DNA of 64,000 bases from positions 104,842,001-104,906,000 of the forward strand of contig OX597819.1 of the NCBI GenBank assembly GCA_951406725.2, written 5' to 3'. The position numbers and the translations under genes were made by a program. Source of the DNA: Octopus vulgaris (lineage: Eukaryota). Shown piece after piece: positions 3,038 to 55,228 of this stretch. Under the pieces are notes generated by a model. It was not told where the DNA came from and did not search any database. It saw nothing but the letters and a program-made list of their open reading frames with translations. Within the stretch, counting starts at the first letter, position 1, and every line of letters begins with the position of its first letter.

Positions 3038-4179
3038 CAACAACAACAACAGCAACATCGAAAAATACCTTAGGAATGAGAACCCAAGTTCGAAATTTCC
3101 CCAAGGCACCTGATGAAGGCTGGAGGGTGTATCCGTGAAATGTAAATAATGTAAATAATACACATTATTAGACTCCTCAAAACCAGAAAGGAGAAGACTG
3201 ATTTGAAGACTACAAATCACTTTCCAGAAGTATATCATACATACATATAATACCCTGTTGTTGATGTTGAAATTCCAATGAAGCAGCCTTGGATCTAGGT
3301 TAGAAATCTTGAAATAAAACTGAATAGTAACAGTAAAAAATAAACTCCTGACACTTTGGAAATAGTTGTAATTGATGTGATTGATGTGATCAGTATGGTC
3401 GATGTGACTGGTGCAATAGATGTGACTGGTGTGATAGATGGTTCCTTTTAAGCAGCTGCAGAAGGAACATGAGCAAAGAGGGAACTTTAGGTTTAATTTA
3501 GAATACCCTCCCTCATAAATCCGTGGCTTTGTGCTAGTATAAGAAAGCAATATTTCTATAAACAAGGGAGGGAGGTCTATAAACAAAAGGAGGGTCTCTT
3601 TTAACTCAGTCGCCATTTTTGTTCAATTGCAAATGGGATCACAGCTTCAAGGAATCTCTAAGTGTTCGTGCGACCTCCTAAAAGTAACAGCCAAATCTTC
3701 CTTGAATCATATCATACTATCTAAAAAGTGAAGGTGATATGTATATAAAGAAAAAACAGGATAATATATAAAGATAGCATATTTGATACCGACATAAACT
3801 TTAAAAGTCGTGATGTTCACGAATGGTTTGACTCGTATGGAGCAACCTGAGGATAAGCAACACATTGATTATTTCATTTTCTTTCTCTCTTTTTTTCAGT
3901 CAAAAGGGAAGATCAAATTTGTACCCATGACCGTTTGCAAGACTTAAAGGATTATTTGGAGGGACGGAGAGAGGAGTAGTATCTTCAAACTGGAGACCTG
4001 GACCGAACCTTTACAACAAAATGGACTCCATTAAAAAATGTCTGGTGAGTTAGATGGTGATATTAGGGAAGGTGATGGATTTAGTCTACTATAAATCCGA
4101 CAAATCTCTATAAACATGGAATTGTGTCTGCTCCAGATTTTCCATAAGAACAGAGTTCCAAATACATCAACAGATTCGA

Positions 4180-10168: not shown

Positions 10169-10855
10169 TCTCTCTCTCTCTCACTCTCTCACTCTCTCTC
10201 TCTCATGTGTGCGTGTGGTGGGGTGATGATAATATTCATGTCGAAAGTTGCTATTGATAGGACATACTGTAGAAATATATTTACTCAATACATCCATGTA
10301 CTTTGAGAATTGCTTTAACGCGAAAATTTGAATCGAGGAGTAAGGTAAGGGAAACCTTAGGGGTCAATAACCCTTTTAAATGTTCAACATGTAACTAAGT
10401 TTATATTCACGTACATGGAAACCCAAGTAGGATCTTCACGCCTGAAAAACGTACTTGGGTTTCCACGTACGTGAAACTATTAGTAGCGTGGTTTATGCAT
10501 GTGAGGTGACCGTATAAAACAGTGTGGGGGGGGGTACAGGGTTGTCAAATAAATTCGTTCGTTTTATTTTTTACCCCATTTACTGTAATCTGTATTATTC
10601 GTCAACAATTTTCCACAAATCTGTCTGCTTCATTGTTCACTACTTCTTGTCGACGTTCTGCGAGTTTCTTCTCAATGCCTTGACGGTAAAAATCATCGGG
10701 TCTTGACTCAAAGACTTCATTGAACCACGTTTTACAGCTCCACGTCGTTGTTGAACATACGCATCACATTCTGTTAGAGAACGAGCGGAAAAGGGGTTAA
10801 TCTGAAGACGTTGAATCAGAAGAATTAGGTGAGTGCAGTAGAATGTTCTAAGCGA

Positions 10856-25687: not shown

Positions 25688-25848
25688 ATCCAAACAAGAA
25701 AACAAAAACAAAAAAACAACAACGCAAGGACGTGGAACAAATAAAGTATTATTGGACGCTCAGGAAAGAAGGGAAGAGAAGGAGGGTTTGACGTTTCGAG
25801 CGGAGCTCTTCGTCGGAAACATAGGAGAAGGAAAGATCCCGAGAAGTA
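25683..25848 (-). mobile_element. Short (TA)n-flanked repeat with minimal hammerhead, copy 1
   Basis: Homologous to 26330-26526; hammerhead motif at 25786-25820. Confidence 0.7.
25786..25820 (-). ncRNA. Predicted minimal type I hammerhead ribozyme (U4C variant)
   Basis: Minus strand: GUUU-CCGACGA-a-GAGC ucc GCUC-GAAA-CG-UC|AAAC. Confidence 0.6.
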
Positions 25849-26268
25849 AGGTAGAATCTTATAAGATTCTACCTTACTTTTTATTAGAAGCTCTGAGTCC
25901 AATGAAGATAGCATTAGCTCTTTAAAGTCGTTCAATTTTTCTCAGTCGATCAATGGACCCATTGAGCAAAGCGATCAAAGAAGGAACCTCCAATAACAAT
26001 TGACGCAGCTGTAAGTCGAATTTGCAACAATTAAAGAATATGTAAAGATCAATATTTATACCTTGTCTTGTGTATGACGCTGTGTAGTAGACCAGTCTAA
26101 CTGGATTTACAATGCAAAATGGTGATAAACTATAATCTCTAACTCTGCCACAAGAATATGCGTAGTTCTTTACTAATCCCCCAAATTTTGTTAACTTGGT
26201 GTATTTGTATTAACAGACAACTTATAAAGTAATTTGTCCGGATTAATAATCCCTTTTAATAATTCCTC

Positions 26269-26329
<61 letters not shown>

Positions 26330-26334
<5 letters not shown>

Positions 26335-26526
26335 ATCCAAGCAAGAAAGCACACAAAAAAACACAACGCGAGGACGTGGAACAAATATAGTATTATTGGA
26401 CGCTCAGGAAAGAAGGAGGGTTTAACGTTTCGAGCGGAGCTCTTCTTCGGAAACATAGGAGAAGGAAAGATCCAGAGAAAGGAAGACAGAGGGAAAAAAA
26501 TCGCCAACGGTACACACGTGGTCATA
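26330..26526 (-). mobile_element. Short (TA)n-flanked repeat with minimal hammerhead, copy 2
   Basis: Hammerhead motif at 26420-26454: GUUU-CCGAAGA-a-GAGC ucc GCUC-GAAA-CG-UU|AAAC. Confidence 0.7.
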
Positions 26527-29495: not shown

Positions 29496-32400
29496 TGTTA
29501 CGTATTCTTTTGGGTTGTGTTGGGACAATAAACAACTCATTGAAGGCGTTATTATGATTCTATATGTTTATTTACTTGGCATGTTTACAAACTGTATATG
29601 TATAGTGGGGTGATACACACTGTTCTTATTCGCTTTATTCACAGTTCATACTGTTTACTAGATGCGCTTAACAAAATAGTACTAATCATAATCAAGTACC
29701 ATTTTTGGTTCTCTGTGAACAGATCTACTCCAATAGCTTGCCATGACTTTCTTGGGATGTCACTAGGTATCATTTCCTTCTTTTGTTGTGAGTTTCTGTA
29801 CCTTTGACTGATGTGGCATATAGAAGCTATCTTTACTATGTCTTTGTATATGCCTACCCAATATACAGCTGGCTTGGATCAGAGTTTGCATTTTTCTTTT
29901 CCCAGATGCCCTTGGTAGATCTTGTCAAGAATCTCTTTTTGCATTGATATGGGTATGATTATTCGGGGTCCAGCCATCAGGACTCCATTCTCTACTAATA
30001 TGTCATCATGGATGGCCCAATTTTCACGAATGAGGGGCTGCACCTGATGTCTCTTCTCTGGCCGCCCTTGAATCACCATCTGGGAAAGGAGCTGGAGTTC
30101 TTCATCTCTGTTGGCCTCCTCTTTCATTTGTTCCAGCTTTGTATTTGTCACATTTACAATGTAGTGGCCCTTTACACTGAGTCCTTCCATCTCCTGTTTA
30201 TCGTATGATGATAGTCTGGAAAGAGCATCCGCCAATATCAGGGCCTTTCCTGGCTTGTACCTGATATTGTAGTCGTACTTTTGGAGTCTCAACAGTAACC
30301 TTTGCAGTCTGGTTGGTGCTTTTGTGAGGTTTTTTTCTGTCTATTTGTTCTAGAGGGCGATGGTCTGACTCAATATTGAAATGTCTGCCATACAGATATG
30401 TATGAGACTTTTCACAGCCATAGAATACTGCCAGGAGTTCCCTTTCAATGTTTGAATATCTTGTCTCTGTAGGTGAGAGAGCTTTCGAGGCATATGCAAT
30501 AGGTTTGCCTTCTTGTATCAATGCCGCGCCAACTCTTCTCTTAGAAACTGGTTTGCGTCTGTCATAATACTTCAGAGTTGTCTCTTTGCTCACCTTCAAC
30601 CCAAATGGGAGTCAGTTGAATCTGTATCTGCCAAATGGTGTGTTGAAGGTAGTGAGCATGGATGATTCTTTGTCTATCTTTATATTCCAGTTTGCTAAAT
30701 ATCTTAGATCCAGCCAATGATAGTGTGATTTCATCGAGGGTTGGAATTGGATAGTAATCTCGTTTTAATGCCTTGTTCAAATCCCTGGGGTCGAGTCATG
30801 TTCGTAGGGTACCACTGGGTTTTTCTTTGATTACAATTGAATTCACCCAGTCAGTTGGTTGTGTCACTTTGCTGATCATTCGTCTTTTTTTTCTATTATG
30901 TTCAACTCTGCCTTCAGTTTCTCTCTTAATTCTAGTGGAACGCGGCGAGGTAGGTGAACAATTGGTTTGGCATTGGGGTCGACTGTTATATGGTATCAAC
31001 ATTTCTCAAATCACCCGACTGTATCGTCAAAACGTTCTGGATACATGCTCATCAGTTCATCTTTATTTGTGATTGGTGGTCGGTCTTTGATAGGCATATC
31101 TCTATCAATCCTGCTTGGAGCTGCCTTCACTTCACTGTTGATTGCCACAATGTTGAGCTTTTGATAGGTATTAAGTCCGAGAATTGCGAGTCCTTCTGTT
31201 CTTATGGCATAAAAAGAACACTTGATTTTTCTTCCTTTGTGTGTCCCTGTAATGGTTGTTTTGCCCAGTTGTGGAATCCTAGTACCTCCGTATGCAGTTA
31301 GGATTACATCACTGGATGTGAGGATTCCTTCTTTGACTTTATCCTATTGTGTCGTGTGTTCTGGGAACATCTTTTTGTAGAGGTTGACAGGCAAGATATC
31401 ACTCTGGGTTCCAGTATCAATCTTTAGCTTTAGATCAATGTTTATTCGTTTCTTGTTCGACTTCTTTTGGATTTGTATTGTTGTGTATGCCTCATTTTTT
31501 TTTTTCGGTTGTCATTTCTCATCTCATGTTCATTTATTGTGCCGACTGCCAAGAATTCCTCCTCTGAGGTGTTTTCTTCTTGTTGTTGGGCATGTACATC
31601 TGTTTGTCTTCTCTTTCCGCTCCTCTTCGAAAACTGGGGTTTGTATTTGTGAGATTTTGTTAGTCTACACATTTTTCCCCAGTGGTTGGACTTTCCACAT
31701 GCTTTGCAGTGTGTACCGAATGCAGGACATTTCTTCCGGTCATTGAACTCATGCTCTGTACCACAGTACTGGTATGTTCTCTGTGGGTATGTTTCATCCC
31801 ATGTCTAGATAAAATATCTTCACTGCTGTCTATTGTGTTTGTTTGTAAAGTAAGTGAGGCCAGTTGTTTGGTAGTGGCTTCAAATGCTCTTGCAGTGTCC
31901 ACTGCTTCTATCACCTGGAGAGCGTCCTTACCTATGAGGGATTTCTGGACTTCTTTATGAGCACACCCCCATATGAGTTGATCAACAATCCTTTCGTCCT
32001 TGTCTTTGAATCTGCATTTCTCGGCAACATTCTTTAGTCTGTATAGGAAGTTGTCAATCGTTTTTTGTTGGTCTTGTTTCAGACCCTGGAATTCGTACCT
32101 ATGGATTCTATGGTTTGATCTGGGCTCTAGGTATCTTTCACATCTCTCTAAAAGTGTGTCTGGATTAATGCAATCCGATTCTGACATGTCCCAACTATTG
32201 AATAGGTCTAAGCCCTTCTCTTCTGTCCATAAAAGGATGTAGCTTACCTTTTCATCGACAGTTGTACCTTTCAGGGAGCTTTTGAAAGCTAGTTGACTTT
32301 TCTATTTGAATTTCTTGAACGCTTCCACGATATCATCGGCGTCCCAGTTCATGGTCGGATGTAGATTCATCTGTATGGCGACGGGAGGACCGCCATTTTG

Positions 32401-37199: not shown

Positions 37200-37780
37200 T
37201 CATTTTCATATTACGTCATATTTACATTGTCCATCATATTATATATGTATGGAGTCAAATTTGGATATTGCGTAACAGTTATGTATGACGTCATGTTTAT
37301 GTATGTGTTGATAATTTAATATTTCACCATATTTAGAAAGCCTGTCATATTTGCAGATGACGTCATAAATTTGAACATGACGTCATATACACATCGCCTG
37401 TCACATTCACGTATGATGTCATATTCTGATATTACGTCATATTTACAGAACCCGTCATATTTACGTATGACGTCAAATTTAAATATTACATCATATTTAC
37501 ATAGTCCATCACATTCTCGTGTGACATCATGTTCTGATATTAAGTAATGCATAGTCCGTCATATTTCCGTATGACGTCATGCTTGAATATTACGTCATAC
37601 ATAGCCTGTCGTATTTATGTACAACGTCAGATTTGAATGTTCCATCATATTTACATATTCCGCTATATTTATGTCAGATGACATATTTGAATATTACGTC
37701 ATCATTACGGACTGCGTCATATTTACAGATGAAATCATAATTACGTATAACGTTATATTTGAACAATGCGTCATTTCTCA
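37200..37780. repeat. Degenerate ~18-bp minisatellite rich in TGACGTCA
   Basis: Recurring atgacgtcatatttac-like units; translates as a YDVI repeat on the minus strand. Confidence 0.75.
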
Positions 37781-38378
37781 ATTGTATTTTGCATCTTATT
37801 TGCTTCAACACAGCAAAATACTCTTATTTCTGACTGTGAAAGTAGAATTCAAATCTATAAAGAAGTACTGTGTATAGCTAGATGTTATTATTAGTGTCCG
37901 CTTAGTTGAAAAGTCGTTGCCGTAATCGTCGGTGGTGTTGCTGCTACTACTACTGTTGTTGTTGTTGTTCAGTTGATTCAGTGCAGGCCTGGTTAAGTAA
38001 ACCGACTGAGAGTCAACTGCAGTAGTCGGCCAAACGACCAGATACAACCCATAGATCTATTGTTTCATAGGAGTGGCTGTGTGACAAATAGCTTGCTTAC
38101 CAATCACATGGTTCCGGGTTCAGTCCCACTGCGTGGCACCTTGGGCAAGTGTCTTCTACTATAGAACCGAGCCGACCAAAGCATTGTGAGGAAATTTGGT
38201 AGACGGAAACTGAAAGAAGCCCGTCGTATATATATGTATATGGTGTGTTTAAGAGACCGATAGAATAAGTACTAGGCTTACAAAGAATAAGTCCTGGTGA
38301 CGATTTGCTCGACTAAAGGCGGTGCTGCAGCATGGCCGCAGTCAAATGAATGAAACAAGTAATAGAGAGAGTAAAAGA

Positions 38379-38483: not shown

Positions 38484-40109
38484 CAGTTGCGGCCAAAATG
38501 TTCAGAACGGCATTGTTTTCGTCAGAAAAGTAGGTATAAGTTTTTATCAAAGTTTTTTTTTATATTCTATAATTTTCACAGACAATAAATACGATATTAT
38601 TTGTTATTGTCTCAGATTTTGGTGTAATTTGAGAGGATAATACAAAAGTTATGGATGATTTACTGATTTACTGCAAAACCCATTGCGGCCAAAATGATCA
38701 GAACGGTTGCTTTTACTCCATGTTTTAGTATATTTTACCAGCGAACTCTAATGTTTTGAATTTGTTTACGTGGCGGTTCATTTACTAAACACGCCTAAGA
38801 ATATCTGCAGTGTACTTTGTTAATATAATGCCACTTACTCCGTTACCAATTCGTCAGCAGATTATTAAGCTTCGAAAGAAGTATAATTTAAGTATTAGGT
38901 CTATTGCAAAGATTGTTAACAAGTCAAAAAGTGTTGTTCACGGTATTTTTAAGGTCTACGATGATTGTGGTTCGTGTGAAGCAAGAAAGTCTACAGGCTG
39001 GCCAAGAAAAACGACCAAGAGAGAAGATCGTGCTATGGTAAAGTTGGTTAAAAAGGACAGATTTAAAACTGCTGCTGCTGTTTCTCGGGAAATGAGCATT
39101 GTACTGAAGAAAACTTTATCTCGAAAAACTTTGTCTCGTCCTTTAGTTGAACATAACCTACAAGCAAGAGCACCTGCAGTGAAGCCACTGATCAGCTCCA
39201 AGAATAAAAAATGTCGTCTTACCTTTACAACCGAACATGTGTTGTGGTCTCAAGAAAAATGACAAATGGTGCATTTCAGTGATGAATCTAAGTCTATGTT
39301 ATTTGGCTCAGATGGGAAAAGGTACGTTCGTCGAAAAGCAGGTGAAAAATTGTCACCTAAATGCCTTAAGACTAGTGTTAAATTCGGTGGAGGAAGTGTC
39401 ATGGTTTGGGAGATGATATCTGGAGATGTTGTGGGCCCTTTGCTGCGATTACATGGAAAGGTAAATGCAGGAGTTTATAAACAACTTGTAAAAGATCATG
39501 TCTTGCCTGTGCTGAGAAATTCAACTAAGCGACCACCTATATTCATGTAGGACAATGCCCCGTGTCACAAGGCTAAGGTGGCCATGAACTTCCTCAAGGC
39601 TGAAAAGGTTACTGTTATGGATTGGCCTGCTCAAAGCCCAGACCTCAATCCTATTGAAAATGTGTGGAATATTCTAGGAGAACGTTTGAAAGCCAGAAAT
39701 CCTAAAACAACCGAGCAATTATGGAATGCCCTTCAGAAAGAATGGAATAAGATCACCCAGCAAGAAATTGAAAATTTAATTTCCCCATGCAGTCGAAAAT
39801 GTCAAACTTTGATTGAAGCTAAAGGGCTTCACACTAAATATGAAATAATTCCAGCATTCTCTGTCACTTTTTGATTATTTTGTTATTTTTTCAACCGTTC
39901 TGATCATTTTGGCCTCCATGGGTTTTGCAGTAAACCACTATATCATCCATAACTTTTGTATTATCCACTCAAATTACACCAAAATCTCAGACAATACCAA
40001 TTAATATCGTATTTATTGTCTGTGAAAATTATAGAATAAAAAACAACTTTTAAAAAACTTATACCTACTTTTCTGACAAAAACAATGCCGTTCTGAACAT
40101 TTTGGCCGC

Positions 40110-40114
<5 letters not shown>
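38484..40114 (+). mobile_element. Tc1-family DD34E DNA transposon, IR/DR type, full length
   Basis: ~225-bp TIRs (cagttgcggccaaaatgttcagaacgg) each with an inner direct repeat (~38683, ~39892); TA flanks. Confidence 0.96.
38828..39844 (+). pseudogene. Tc1 transposase with two in-frame stops
   Basis: One frame: HTH region, G.PRKT, FSDES, (Q)DNAPCH, WPAQSPDLNPIEN (D-34-E counted), HTKY; stops at 39260-39262 and 39548-39550. Confidence 0.93.
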
Positions 40115-40189
<75 letters not shown>

Positions 40190-40191
<2 letters not shown>

Positions 40192-40731
40192 ACAATTGAG
40201 GGTAAAATTAATTAATCAATTTCACCAAGTGTTCAGTATGTAAAAGGACCATTTAAGGCGAATTCAAAATATTACATTATATAATTAGGGCTTAGTAAAA
40301 TAAAGTACTTTGCCACATACTGAACTTAGTAGAAATAGCAGCCAAAAAAATTTTTTTTATCCATTTCTACTACTTAAAGAAAATTTCTCTCAGATAATGT
40401 TTACTCCAGACAGCTCACGAAGGTTTGGAGGTAAATACAGAAAAATATCACAAGTACATAGATCCAAATTAAGAAATTTTGAGCTGACGAAAGAAATGCT
40501 GATTTTATTTGGCTAATCTTGAAACGTTGACGTACTCAAACGATCTATGTACTTGTGATATTTTTCTGTATTTACCTCCAAACCTTCGTGAGCTGTCTGG
40601 AGTAAACATTATCTGAGAGAAATTTTCTTTAAGTAGTAGAAATGGCTAAAAAAATTTTTTGGGGCTGCTATTTCTACTAAGTTCAGTATGTGGCAAAGTA
40701 ATTTATTTTACTAAGCCCTAATTATATAATG

Positions 40732-40732
<1 letters not shown>
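40190..40732 (+). mobile_element. Fold-back element A (191-bp arms) with hammerhead in loop
   Basis: Arms 40274-40464 / 40542-40732 near-identical; (TA)n on both sides. Confidence 0.85.
40478..40540 (+). ncRNA. Predicted type I hammerhead ribozyme (canonical C3:G8 core)
   Basis: UUUGAG-CUGACGA-AAGA...UCUU-GAAA-CGU ug ACG-UA|CUCAAA: all core bases and three stems present. Confidence 0.85.
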
Positions 40733-40771
<39 letters not shown>

Positions 40772-40773
<2 letters not shown>

Positions 40774-41048
40774 CAATTGCAGCGTGGAAGGTGTTTGTAA
40801 GCCATTTAAGAAACACACAAAAGCCGTTCGATTCACTACAACATTTAAGTTTGATTTGTCAAAATATTTTCGTTGCTATAAGACCGCGACCTGTTCGCTG
40901 ACAAAAATCCGTGCTTTTGTCAGTGAACAGGTCGCGGTCTTATAGCGACGAAAATATTTTGACAAATTAAACTTAAATGTTGAAGTGAATCGAACGGCTT
41001 TGAGTGTTTCTTAAATGGCTTACAAACACCTCCCACGCTGCAATTGTT
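40772..41048. mobile_element. Fold-back element B (135-bp arms, 8-nt loop) with G3:C8 hammerhead-like motif in the arms
   Basis: Arms 40772-40906 / 40915-41048; motif UUUGUCA-GUGAACA-g-GUCGC..GCGAC-GAAA-AUAU-UU|UGACAAA at 40916-40966. Confidence 0.8.
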
Positions 41049-41100
41049 TTCGTTCCAGCACACGATCTCAGATCAAATCACTTGCTATGCAAGTACATCT

Positions 41101-41189
<89 letters not shown>

Positions 41190-41193
<4 letters not shown>

Positions 41194-41525
41194 AGGCGCA
41201 TGACTCAGTGGTTAGAGCGTCAAACTTACGACCGTGAGGTTGGGAGTTCGAATCTCGAACCGAGCTGCATGTTGTGTTCTTGAGCAAGACACTTTACTTC
41301 ACGTTGCTCCGGTTGACTCAGTTGTAGAAATGATTTGCGACGATACTGGTGCCAAGCTATATCGGCCTTTGCCTTTCCCTTGGATGACATCGGTCCCGTG
41401 GAGAGGGGAGGTTGGTATGCATGGGCGACTACTGGTCTTCCATAAACAACCTTGCCCGGACTTGTGCCTCCGAGGGTAACGTTCTATGTGCAATCCCATG
41501 GTTATTCGTGACTGAAGTGGTTTCC
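41190..41525 (+). mobile_element. tRNA-derived SINE (different family) between TA arrays
   Basis: Head tgactcagtggttagagcg...ggagttcgaatct (box A/B). Confidence 0.75.
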
Positions 41526-41555
41526 GATATATATATATATATATATAACATATAT

Positions 41556-42336
41556 ATCTGAATGTGGCTAGGGACAGGGCAGGGCGGTGGGGGTGTTACT
41601 GATGCATTTAGCCCCAGGCGATCATCAACGTCACCAGGATGGCTGACGCCATCACGGCGTCCTCTAGCCTGCAAAAGGAGATCATTCCCCGAAGAAGCGG
41701 ATGCCACATACGGACCTAGGTTTCAAGGTGTTTGCCTATTATCAACGTATGGCAGGCACCGCTCCTCGACGAACGACTCTCTGTGCAGGCTATATATAAA
41801 GATTTTCACAGTAAATACATTTACTGATGTAGAAAATCTGTTCGACAGCAATAATAATTCTCTAAACGAGATATAGACAGTAACTGCTCCATAACATAAG
41901 GGACGTTAGCCATCTGAATGTGGCTAGGGACAGGGCAGGGCGGTGGGGGTGTTACTGATGCATTTAGCCCCAGGCGATCATCAACGTCACCAGGAGGGCT
42001 GACGCCATCACGGCGTCCTCTAGCCTGCAAAGGGAGATCATTCCCCGAAGAAGCGGATGCCACATACGGACCTAGGTTTCAAGGTGTTTGCCTATTATCA
42101 ACGTATGGCAGGCACCGCTCCGTGGCATCCGCTTCTTCGGGGAATGATCTCCCTTTGCAGGCTAGAGGACGCCGTGATGGCGTCAGCCCTCCTGGTGACG
42201 TTGATGATCGCCTGGGGCTAAATGCATCAGTAACACCCCCACCGCCCTGCCCTGTCCCTATCCACATTCAGATGGCTAACGTCCCTTATGTTATGGAGCA
42301 GTTACTGTCTATATCTCGTTTAAAGAATTATTATTG

Positions 42337-42338
<2 letters not shown>
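41556..42338 (-). mobile_element. Element C: 356-bp tandem repeat plus inverted copy, with two U3:A8 hammerheads
   Basis: Direct copies start at 41556 and 41912; inverted arms 41847-42063 / 42122-42338; hammerheads at 41707-41751 and 42063-42107. Confidence 0.85.
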
Positions 42339-52004: not shown

Positions 52005-52200
52005 AAATATAATATGTGACAATTATTCAGTAGCTATAATAAAACTTCAAGTTTCAGATGTCGGGGCGGAAACACACGCTGGCATCTCTTCAGTTATCAA
52101 TGGCCCAATAACTGAAGAGATACCGGCATGTGTTTCTGCCCTGACATCCGAAACTCAGAGTTTTATCATGGCTACCGAATTATTGTCACATATTATATTT
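52005..52200. mobile_element. Fold-back element E (93-bp arms) with a hammerhead motif in each arm
   Basis: Arms 52005-52097 / 52108-52200; plus-strand AUAA-CUGAAGA-GAU...AUCc-GAAA-CUC a GAG-UU|UUAU at 52108-52166; TA array nearby. Confidence 0.75.
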
Positions 52201-52604: not shown

Positions 52605-54586
52605 TCAGTCTGACGTCATTGGACTGACTCTACTTGAAGTGTTGGTAATCTGGTCTAACGGCAAACAGGACGAAAGATCTGTTGAACCAGAACTCGTTAC
52701 TTGTACAATAATTTCTCCATTGGCTGTTGTTGGGATGTTGATTGTATTAGCAGTGATATTAGCAGCAGATGTTAAAGTGCTAACCTGCTGTATGGTAGCT
52801 GGTGTCGGTTGAAGACTTGGTGGTAGGATCAACTGAAGTGAAGCTGAAGGCAAACCAGCTGCACTGCATTGTTCAAGAAGTTCGTTTTTGATATTTGAAG
52901 CATCAATGTCAACACGAGATATTTGGACATTAATAGGAATGGTGCCGGTCTGTGAAGTATGTTGGGATAGGATATGAAGAGGGATTTCGGATGTGGCAGA
53001 ATGGTGTTGTTGGTGGCTCGTCAAAGTAGGACTTAGAGGTGAATTCACAATGCTTATTTGCTCAGGACGTTGTCCAGCAACTTGGTTAGGTAGAAGCTGA
53101 GTACTGAGTGATGCTGCCGGCATACGTATGAAAGGCAAAGAGATATTTGAAATAAGCTGTAGAGTGTTGGGAGCTGCCTGCAAGAATTGTGGAGTAACAA
53201 TGGTACTCTGCTGTGGCTGGCTACTCAACAAGATACCATTCATAACACTCTGAGCACCACTACTTACAGATGGACTACTCACAGTTGAAGGTAACACTTG
53301 CGACACTGTCGTCTGTGAGCCAGTTGCTAAAGTTGATAAAGGGGCTCCTATTGAGTCCCTTGGCAGGCAATGTACTGTCTGAGATGTATGATCAACCAAG
53401 TTTTGGCTGATAGTCTGGGGTAGACTACCAGCTTGGCTTTCTAAAGATGCAGAATTTGTGGATTGTGAGAAAATAATATTATTAGAAGCCAAGTCTTTAG
53501 AAATTGATATAAAAGACGAACTGCTTGGTGTCATCGCTATCGTCGCTGGGGTACTGTTTGTTGATGATAGTGTTACTTGTTGTTGTAGCCGCTGCTGTTG
53601 TTGATGTTGTTGTTGTGATTGTGGTTGGCCACTGACTAAAAGAGATTTTGAGGTCACCAAACTTTTTAAAATGGGTTGCTCTACATCTGAAGAAACTGAA
53701 TTGCTGCTCAGGTTCCCAATATTCAAGAACGATTGTTGACAAACAGGAGCACTTTTATTCGATTTTGAAATGTGTGGCGCTGTGATGATGTTGACAATGG
53801 ATGATGTGGATACCAAAGAAGGAGACTCCGACACAGATTTCACAGATGAGCTGCTCCCAGCACCAACAAGTAATGTTGCAAATTTGTTAGTAGAAGACAC
53901 TGACTGGTTACTATTACTATTGTTGGTTGTGTTAGCAGTGAGAAGACTTGTCAGAGTTTGTGGTGAAGAATCTTTCATAGTATGGCTTGCCTGAGAGTTC
54001 ACTGGCACCATGGGATTCTGTACTTCAAGCACTCTCATCGTTGAAGTCTGCAGAGCCTTTTCAATATCTCGGTGTTGTCGCATGTGACTTCGTAAAGAAT
54101 CCTGTCGGACAAACGAGGCATTACACTGCACACAGCAAAAGGATTTCTTGCAGTTTGGTTTGATTCTCATTTGAGATCCACCAGATGGTTCCAGATTTGT
54201 TATAGGTGAAGAATTGGTGCTTGCATTAGCAGAAACTTTCTCGATAGGTTCTGATTTTTTGCGAGAACCTGTCTTCCTCTTCTGTTTCAGTTTGTCTGAA
54301 TGTTTCTTTGCCATGTGAGTTTTCACATTGCTGTTCTGTTTGGAAGTGTAGGCACAATAATCACAAGAGAATGGACGATCTTCACTGTGTGTGCGCAGGT
54401 GGTTAATTAATGCACTTTTACGGGAGCACTGATATGGACAAGATGGACATTTGATGGGGCGGTCAGTATCATGAGTCTTGATATGTTCTCGGTAACTCTT
54501 GCGAGAAGATGTAGCATAATTACAATTATCACAGTGGATCTGGTCATCTGTTGAGTGGTTGATTCGATAGTGACTTTTGAGGTTAG
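52605..54586 (-). CDS. ZFP64: ZFP64-like terminal coding exon: fingers 6-10 and long S/Q/T-rich C-terminus
   Basis: Acceptor cctacag|CT AAC CTC (ANLKSH); three further tandem fingers, isolated finger FCCVQCNASFVRQDSLRSHMRQH; TGA at 52605-52607. The five exons total 3429 nt = 1143 codons with no internal stop. Confidence 0.93.
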
Positions 54587-55228
54587 CTGTAGGAGAGAGA
54601 GAGAGAAAGAGAGATAAATTCAGTGATGGGTATATCATCATATTTTTAAATATGATGGCTAAGAGTTGGGAAGCAAAACATTCTACAGAAACAATCAAAT
54701 GGACATTTACAAATATACACATGAGGGTGTAGGACAAAGGTGGGATCAAAAAAAGGAATATTGTTTTAGGGTTACAATGATAAATATGTTGGCAGTGGTG
54801 GTGGTGGTGGCGGCCTTTTCATTAACATCATCATCATCAAGTTTGTATTTGTGCAGGCAGCTTTTGGTAGGGGTGGCAAGAGTAAGGATAAAAATTAACT
54901 TTAGTGGTGGGGAGGGTGTTGGGTAAGTGTCTTCCTTCAATGCCATAAGTTCACCAAAGTCTTGTTAGTAAAATTTGGTAGACAGAAGCTATGCAAAAGC
55001 TTGTCAGATGTGTGTGTTTGTGTGTGTGTGTGTGTCTATATACATACATATGTGTTCATGTATGAATGCATGTATGTATGTAGTTTTGCGTGTTGTATGC
55101 ATGTATGACAGAGGGAAGAGTGAGAGAGAAGAGACAGAAAGAAAGAAAAACAGAGAGAAGAAGAGACAGAGAGAAGATGGGAAGAGAGACAGAGAAAGAG
55201 AGGTGATTTGGCAATATATATGCCATAC

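Follow-up and report, generated by a model that had tools for sequence, protein, structure and literature searches.

Hammerhead motifs of three Penelope-like repeat families at one Octopus vulgaris locus, one of them with a flipped G3:C8 core pair

Four hammerhead motifs lie within 1.7 kb of the window (the whole 64-kb stretch of Octopus vulgaris DNA that was analysed), whereas 800 kb of randomly taken genome sequence contained 9; the four come from three repeat families of Penelope-like element (PLE) type that are unrelated to one another. The pair formed by positions 3 and 8 is part of the active core of the hammerhead; it differs among the three families and in one of them it is flipped to G3:C8. 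Judged from its sequence, this motif seems to be a natural core variant of the known PLE hammerheads and a putative ribozyme. The explanation that we favour, and that we consider reasonably probable, is that the motifs are the terminal hammerheads of three PLE families lying in adjacent (TA)n tracts, that they are likely to cut themselves slowly, as dimers or with the help of a protein, and that selection is likely to keep positions 3 and 8 paired, whichever letters make up the pair. The anatomy of the locus, the copy numbers, the link of the G3:C8 family to an ORF with RT, Cys-linker and GIY-YIG parts, and the double changes at 3:8 between homologous families were all observed directly.

The first-pass annotation had described four cores, each accompanied by stem I, stem II, GAAA and NUH, and all of them were recovered both by inspection of the sequence and by a descriptor scan. 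They are CUGACGA (40484-40490, +), GUGAACA (40923-40929, +) and UUGAUAA (41739-41745 and 42095-42101, both -). In the order of the cores at 40484, 40923, 41739 and 42095, stem I measures 6, 7, 6 and 6 bp and the NUH triplet is GUA, UUU, GUC and GUC. A short self-complementary stem III is found in all four motifs, which gives a complete type I minimal-hammerhead layout. The descriptor, in which positions 3, 7 and 8 were left free, found 8 distinct sites in the 64-kb window, where 30 block-wise dinucleotide shuffles gave 0.27 on average. Each motif sits inside its own insertion, and each insertion is bounded by (TA)n tracts and has an inverted arm. The features of the locus are the following.

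40190..40737, + strand: family 1 insertion, a 5'-truncated copy with an inverted upstream copy, between (TA)n tracts
40269-40464 and 40542-40737: arms of family 1, an inverted pair
40478..40540, + strand: type I hammerhead motif with the standard C3:G8 pair (family 1), predicted cut after 40534
40478-83/40535-40: stem I of the family 1 motif, with core 40484-90, stem II 40491-94/40517-20 and GAAA 40521-24
40773..41103, + strand: family 2 insertion, the 3' end (pLTR and tail) of a Penelope-like element with RT and GIY-YIG
40820-40906 and 40915-41001: fold-back arms of family 2, the long tail solely on the right arm
40892..40898, - strand: core of the inverted-arm copy of family 2, GCGAACA, damaged (U4 to C), a fifth motif
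40916..40966, + strand: minimal hammerhead motif of type I (family 2) whose 3:8 pair is flipped to G3:C8, predicted cut after 40959
40916-22/40960-66: stem I of the family 2 motif, with core 40923-29, extra G 40930 and stem II 40931-35/40945-49
40950-53: GAAA of the family 2 motif, with a 10-nt palindrome at 40951-60 and U17
41015..41017, + strand: probable start codon of the family 2 PLE, 56 nt downstream of the predicted cut
41556..42338, - strand: family 3 insertion, made up of 1.6 non-coding tandem units of 356 nt and an inverted arm at 42122-42338, between (TA)n tracts
42063..42107, - strand: type I hammerhead motif with U3:A8 (family 3), core 42095-42101, stem III an 8-nt palindrome, predicted cut 42069/42068
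41707..41751, - strand: second U3:A8 motif (family 3), core 41739-41745, predicted cut 41713/41712

The annotation had spoken of three neighbouring hammerheads with three different core pairs. The three pairs stand, but both U:A cores come from a single 356-nt tandem, one core in each of two units; the second motif lies 356 nt downstream of the first in the sense of the transcript, its stem III self-duplex has -11.4 kcal/mol, and the two can possibly act as partners in a double hammerhead. Family 1 elsewhere in the genome is a tandem unit of 563-570 nt without an ORF, as judged from the spacing of same-strand pairs. At position 40897, in the damaged inverted-arm core of family 2, contigs of four runs (organisms A-D) have another letter in nearly all of their depth.

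Only in family 1 are the core letters CUGANGA...GAAA...UH complete; families 2 and 3 depart from CUGANGA at positions 3 and 8 alone and keep the remaining core letters intact. U:A is an accepted variant at 3:8, and G:C is absent from the consensus. The G:C motif has in addition one added G between positions 9 and 10.1 and a U at position 17, and stem II of the U:A motif begins with a U-U mismatch or one added base. Stems I, II and, in the dimer, III surround the core as in a three-way junction, and covariation agrees with this layout.

The neighbourhood of the three families is by itself uninformative on selection, because they are unrelated, and their clustering is likely to reflect a common targeting of microsatellites. 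A first look at the genome (2.8 Gb) gave 1,196 candidates for family 1, 682 for family 2 and 609 for family 3, and the members, of which 40 were scored in each family, were near-identical. No PLE ORF was found within the 64-kb window. Between families 2 and 3 there is a SINE-like repeat with a tRNA-like head (41190-41528, +), matched at 27 loci, in which ARAGORN found no tRNA. Upstream of family 1, at 38485-40112, lies a TA-flanked element of about 1.6 kb with long terminal inverted repeats, which we take to resemble a Tc1/mariner-type DNA transposon. Further members of C3:G8 hammerhead repeat families are present at 52087-52093 (-), 3054-3141 and 25692-26516. A further motif (10436-10500, +; CUGAAAA at 10442-10448) is hammerhead-like and well formed, with C3·A8 left unpaired, and the DNA examined contained no second copy of it. 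The window also holds a 737-codon frame with C2H2-like zinc fingers, a host exon (52608-54818, -), and a 213-codon gag-like retrotransposon fragment (31663-32301, -), both labelled by eye, as well as a degenerate tandem array with an 18-nt unit (37200-37800). Cores in which U4 has become C (CCGACGA, CCGAUGA) occur in several families (loci of the L100, L265 and L111 types).

The assignment of family 2 to the PLEs comes from copies elsewhere in the genome. In four loci (L250, L255, L242 and L345) an RT region, a Cys linker and a GIY-YIG part precede the G3:C8 motif, and in L345 an unbroken frame of 839 codons with a YVDD motif ends about 1 kb upstream of it. An ORF fragment of family 2 matched GIY-YIG with 26.2 bits (cut-off 22.6); the whole 839-aa protein matched no Pfam family and no PDB chain, and its RT part matched no profile. 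The linker that stands before GIY-YIG in L250, L255 and L345 reads C-X3-C-XX-C, in agreement with the CX2-5CxxC that is used as a criterion for Neptune/Nematis. Moreover family 2 has a pLTR with a hammerhead, inverted or partial-tandem copies and a tail on one side only, as PLEs do. No complete pLTR-ORF-pLTR copy was seen among the family 2 copies examined. Two candidates for tandem full-length PLEs, a 5.0-5.2-kb array on C28 and a 3.6-kb pair on C20, were set aside as copies inside other duplicated DNA. One flank was common to 5 of 20 sampled family 2 loci, which are passengers of one larger repeat, so that the counts of this family are inflated. A single family 2 insertion transported inside a larger dispersed repeat was likewise noted at L099, L193 and L201-L204.

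The ATG at 41015 is likely to start the ORF of the element, because the frame in the tail resembles the N-terminus of the 271-codon frame of a sister PLE (L320). The motif would then lie in the 5' UTR, outside the coding sequence. A coding constraint on 3:8 was also set aside on account of this likely start downstream and of the stops in the frames across the motif in several subfamilies.

The earlier annotation had regarded the G:C and U:A pairs as compensatory double changes. This cannot be drawn from three unrelated neighbours, but it holds between homologues elsewhere in the genome. The protein of the sister PLE is 50% identical to that of family 2 over 280 aa and its tail can be partly aligned. 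At the homologous place it carries a motif whose alignment shows no gap across the core, and this motif has C3:G8 in 35 of 36 copies. A further relative (L341) has C3:G8 too, and C8 is found as well in an old and diverged relative (L344). The sister family is a high-copy one (L291-L320, e.g. L304:2410-2470) in which position 9 of the core has C instead of A (CUGAUGC, 29 of 36 copies); it escaped the first descriptor through this C and was found by eye and by a relaxed scan. Since this family has C at position 9, the cores evidently tolerate departures. In an alignment of five rows, 4 of 12 pairs were double-changed, namely 3:8 and one pair in stem I, one in stem II and one in stem III, and 95% of the cells were paired, as against 18-47% for slid partners; four double-changed pairs were also reached in 81 of 500 shuffles. 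A clade-wide pattern gave 10,792 matches and none in the control. Among the 100 of these matches that were listed, all on chromosome C1, a hand count gave 49 G:C, 46 C:G and 5 other pairs. In an unrooted tree of seven rows with positions 3 and 8 masked, and with the L311 row left out, the three C3 rows split from the family 2 rows at 99/98.

Because C:G is the general state, we infer that G:C is the derived one, and the flip happened once, in a single lineage, which counts as a point against the favoured explanation. The homology also bears on the idea that the G3:C8 motif is a chance look-alike in a fold-back repeat and no descendant of a hammerhead. In keeping with that idea, Rfam gave nothing at gathering score, its 34 weak matches included no hammerhead family, and single-strand folding energies were no better than those of shuffles (z -0.55 to -1.65). 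However, the homology to a motif with a CUGAUG core, found in the corresponding position after an ORF that is 50% identical, largely refutes it, and we hold a chance resemblance to be extremely improbable. At minimum energy the G:C motif forms stem I and stem II. The U at position 17, the pairing of G3 with this U17 in that fold and a stem III duplex that is the weakest of the motifs (-3.8 kcal/mol) tell against the explanation that we favour.

The U:A lineage provides a second case. Its 11 aligned rows comprise 5 U:A, 4 U·G and 2 C:G, with none unpaired at 3:8, and 6 of 12 pairs in the alignment are double-changed. The succession of the three pairs is not ordered by the family 3 tree, in which 3 of the 8 inner branches are open. 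When families are taken as clusters of at least 3 distinct copies in 2.0 Mb of DNA that was partly chosen for these families, 14 of 16 are Watson-Crick at 3:8 against 6.4 expected (p 3e-5; the families are related, and the p value overstates their independence). They are divided into 8 C:G, 5 U:A, 1 G:C and 2 unpaired families, the last two probably not hammerheads; four two-copy clusters and 24 singletons, several of them C·A, were left out of this count. In a random 800 kb, 7 of 9 descriptor matches were Watson-Crick, against 0 of the 5 matches obtained in shuffles of 5 x 800 kb. Compensatory change at 3:8 is thereby supported by the comparison of homologous sequences, and selection on catalysis, for which the double changes had been taken to argue, may be what lies behind it.

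An alignment of genomic copies had been proposed to check whether the pair is fixed within families. Fixation is mostly what these copies have, with exceptions in family 3 (14 of 83 with U·G) and in family 2 (255 that are not G:C). The family 2 pattern found 2,475 matches genome-wide and 0 in the control, divided into 2,220 G3:C8, 182 with G3 and a base other than C at position 8, 73 without G3, and 0 C3:G8. Family 3, with 83 exact pattern matches, has 69 U:A, 14 U·G and 0 with C3, and in family 1 all 29 distinct copies have C:G. Watson-Crick pairs at 3:8 are accordingly found in 2,220/2,475, 69/83 (the remaining 14 being wobble pairs) and 29/29 copies of families 2, 3 and 1. This fixation is no evidence of selection, because the expansions are young. 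Covariation within families was also rejected as a test of selection; the families are young and single-position deviations dominate, most of the copies that deviate at 3 or 8 doing so at just one of the two positions.

The single changes in genomic copies would mostly be decay after insertion. Among the family 2 matches listed on C1-C15, however, by hand count C8 to G accounts for 41 of 84 single changes and its mirror image, G3 to C, for 8 of 73 (Fisher p 3e-7 between the two), and C8 to G is roughly as frequent as C8 to U. There is an excess of copies in which G8 is retained although the pair is broken, as G3·G8 in family 2 and as U3·G8 (14/83) in family 3, and this speaks against strict selection. 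G3·G8 copies differ little in divergence from G:C copies (5.0% and 4.0%). On C16, at about 1.7-6.9 Mb, at least 15 G3·G8 copies of family 2 form a local cluster, and one of them adjoins an ORF fragment (L346). Since G3·G8 occurs on every subfamily background, and in some loci on both arms, these counts suggest that templates with G8 but without a proper partner for it were mobile.

The spread of the broken-pair G·G and U·G forms is also what would be seen if drift or hitchhiking had fixed G:C and U:A in a small number of successful masters, with little selection on the ribozyme. The expansions are indeed young and clonal, with about 4-5% divergence, and the 5 of 20 sampled family 2 loci that travel in one larger repeat inflate the counts. 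Against drift stand the Watson-Crick end state of 14 of 16 families, the transitions from C:G to U:A and from C:G to G:C that are both seen between homologues, and the presence of C8 in the old and diverged L344, and we regard it as quite unlikely.

The ends of the copies can be compared with the predicted cut. The 5' ends of family 2 copies peak 40-70 nt upstream of it and only 1 falls in the first 10 nt past it; the 3' ends form groups at +80-99 and from +140 onward. The points of 5' truncation gather at a branch-point/pyrimidine/AG signal just 5' of stem I (L345:3900-3940 and other copies), and the 5' ends look as if they were set by a splice acceptor or by an internal RNA start. That insertions do not start at the predicted cut suits the possibility that the fold is maintained for its shape, as a signal for protein binding or RNA folding close to the splice acceptor and start codon, and that cleavage is negligible, above all in the G3:C8 family. 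The compensatory changes in stems I, II and III require a fold and no more than that. Moreover, as far as the available text of the two papers goes, unprocessed RNA is the main in vitro substrate of the anole element and no reads end at the cut (PMC11167929), and the activity of minimal hammerheads (min-HHR) is low (PMC4209133). Against this stands the fact that the changes restore, by double transversion, a pair that belongs to the active core in the account given in PMC3088659 (seen in part), and this restoration, like the retained U4-G5-A6, GAAA and U16.1, agrees with selection for the catalytic conformation. A purely structural role is in our opinion unlikely.

If the motifs are indeed slow self-cutting PLE hammerheads, as we prefer to think, the following course can be proposed. 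In read-through or tandem transcripts two motifs would fold with each other by way of the palindromic stem III, and cleavage would give unit-length RNA just upstream of the ORF start. This trimming would be slow and would proceed either as a double hammerhead or with the help of the element's protein. In family 3 the motifs 356 nt apart could pair in cis and release unit-length RNA. Selection on master elements would maintain the 3:8 pair and intermediates that keep G8 would be temporarily tolerated, the route in the masters leading from C:G through U·G and G·G intermediates to U:A and G:C. U17, which is present in some C:G relatives, may have permitted the flip to G3:C8, because a G3-C8 variant has been reported, in the part of the source available and with data not shown there, to be less active with C17 than with G17 (PMC3884650). 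A more far-reaching version, less likely than not but worth stating, is that an autonomous lineage has long run on a truly cutting G3:C8 hammerhead, that the genome preserves the whole path from C:G over U·G to U:A and from C:G over G·G to G:C with intermediates that remained able to transpose, and that U17 avoided a G3-C17 trap.

The neighbourhood of the motifs and the U3:A8 form are ordinary. It is true that a CUGANGA search misses variant cores, as had been pointed out for this locus, and for U3:A8 this is already stated in the accessible part of PMC4209133, where about 1,300 Schistosoma matches with U3:A8 in PLE hammerheads had been missed by a first descriptor. Natural U3:A8 covariation and a U10.1-U11.1 mismatch have been described in other hammerheads too (PMC3088659), and in the portion of that paper at hand G3:C8 was not found. 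The min-HHRs have in common with the present motifs, on the evidence of the sections seen, the type I topology, a short palindromic stem III, an extra base at 9/10.1, G10.1-C11.1, the location in the pLTR and pairs on opposite strands (PMC4209133). In its supplementary Fig. S3, also seen in part, 0 of 56 rows have G3, 2 are U:A, 1 is U·G and the rest are C:G. As a laboratory mutant G3:C8 appears in the available text of PMC11167929, PMC8495972 and PMC3884650. No natural G3:C8 was found in the literature searched, apart from Lünse 2017 (PMC5785218) and PMC3334697, which may list one; the accessible parts of PMC10085705, PMC11014351 and PMC6466107 held nothing on it, and those of PMC6765202 served as background. 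Of the three core pairs, only G3:C8 may therefore be unreported in nature. If this motif cuts, censuses based on CUGANGA or YUGANRA overlook whole high-copy families.

Families 1 and 3 fit a retrozyme-like type on their sequence. They resemble the non-LTR retrozymes, as these are described in the parts seen of PMC7229834 and 10.64898/2026.07.22.740005, in being non-coding tandem units of 563-570 nt and 356 nt with one type I hammerhead each. Unlike those retrozymes, they are mostly dispersed monomers or dimers with PLE-like inversions, and family 3 has U3:A8 and U3·G8 cores. Family 2 resembles the Neptune/Nematis EN+ PLEs in its layout, its (TA)n targets, its inversions and its tail on one side only, as far as the consulted portion of PMC8557442 describes them; its assignment to that clade is by domain layout only, and its core pair is flipped.

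The closest comparison is with the anole Poseidon element (PAc), again from a partial view of the source (PMC11167929). Single mutants at 3 or 8 abolish cleavage there and the double mutant C3G/G8C partly restores it; cleavage requires a protein, and hammerhead mutants insert normally in vitro. PAc has two RT start sites that give short and long tails, which can be compared with the 3' ends of family 2 at +80-99 and from +140. Its motif overlaps the ORF start, whereas that of family 2 seems to sit upstream of the start codon, at a distance of about 56 nt. The C:G and G:C sister elements, together with the U·G and G·G intermediates, form a test set for the question whether PLE hammerheads are selected for cleavage. 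The base swap is the same in both PLE hammerheads, engineered in PAc and natural in family 2, and if the family 2 motif does cut, the swap that established the 3:8 pair in the laboratory has happened in nature too.
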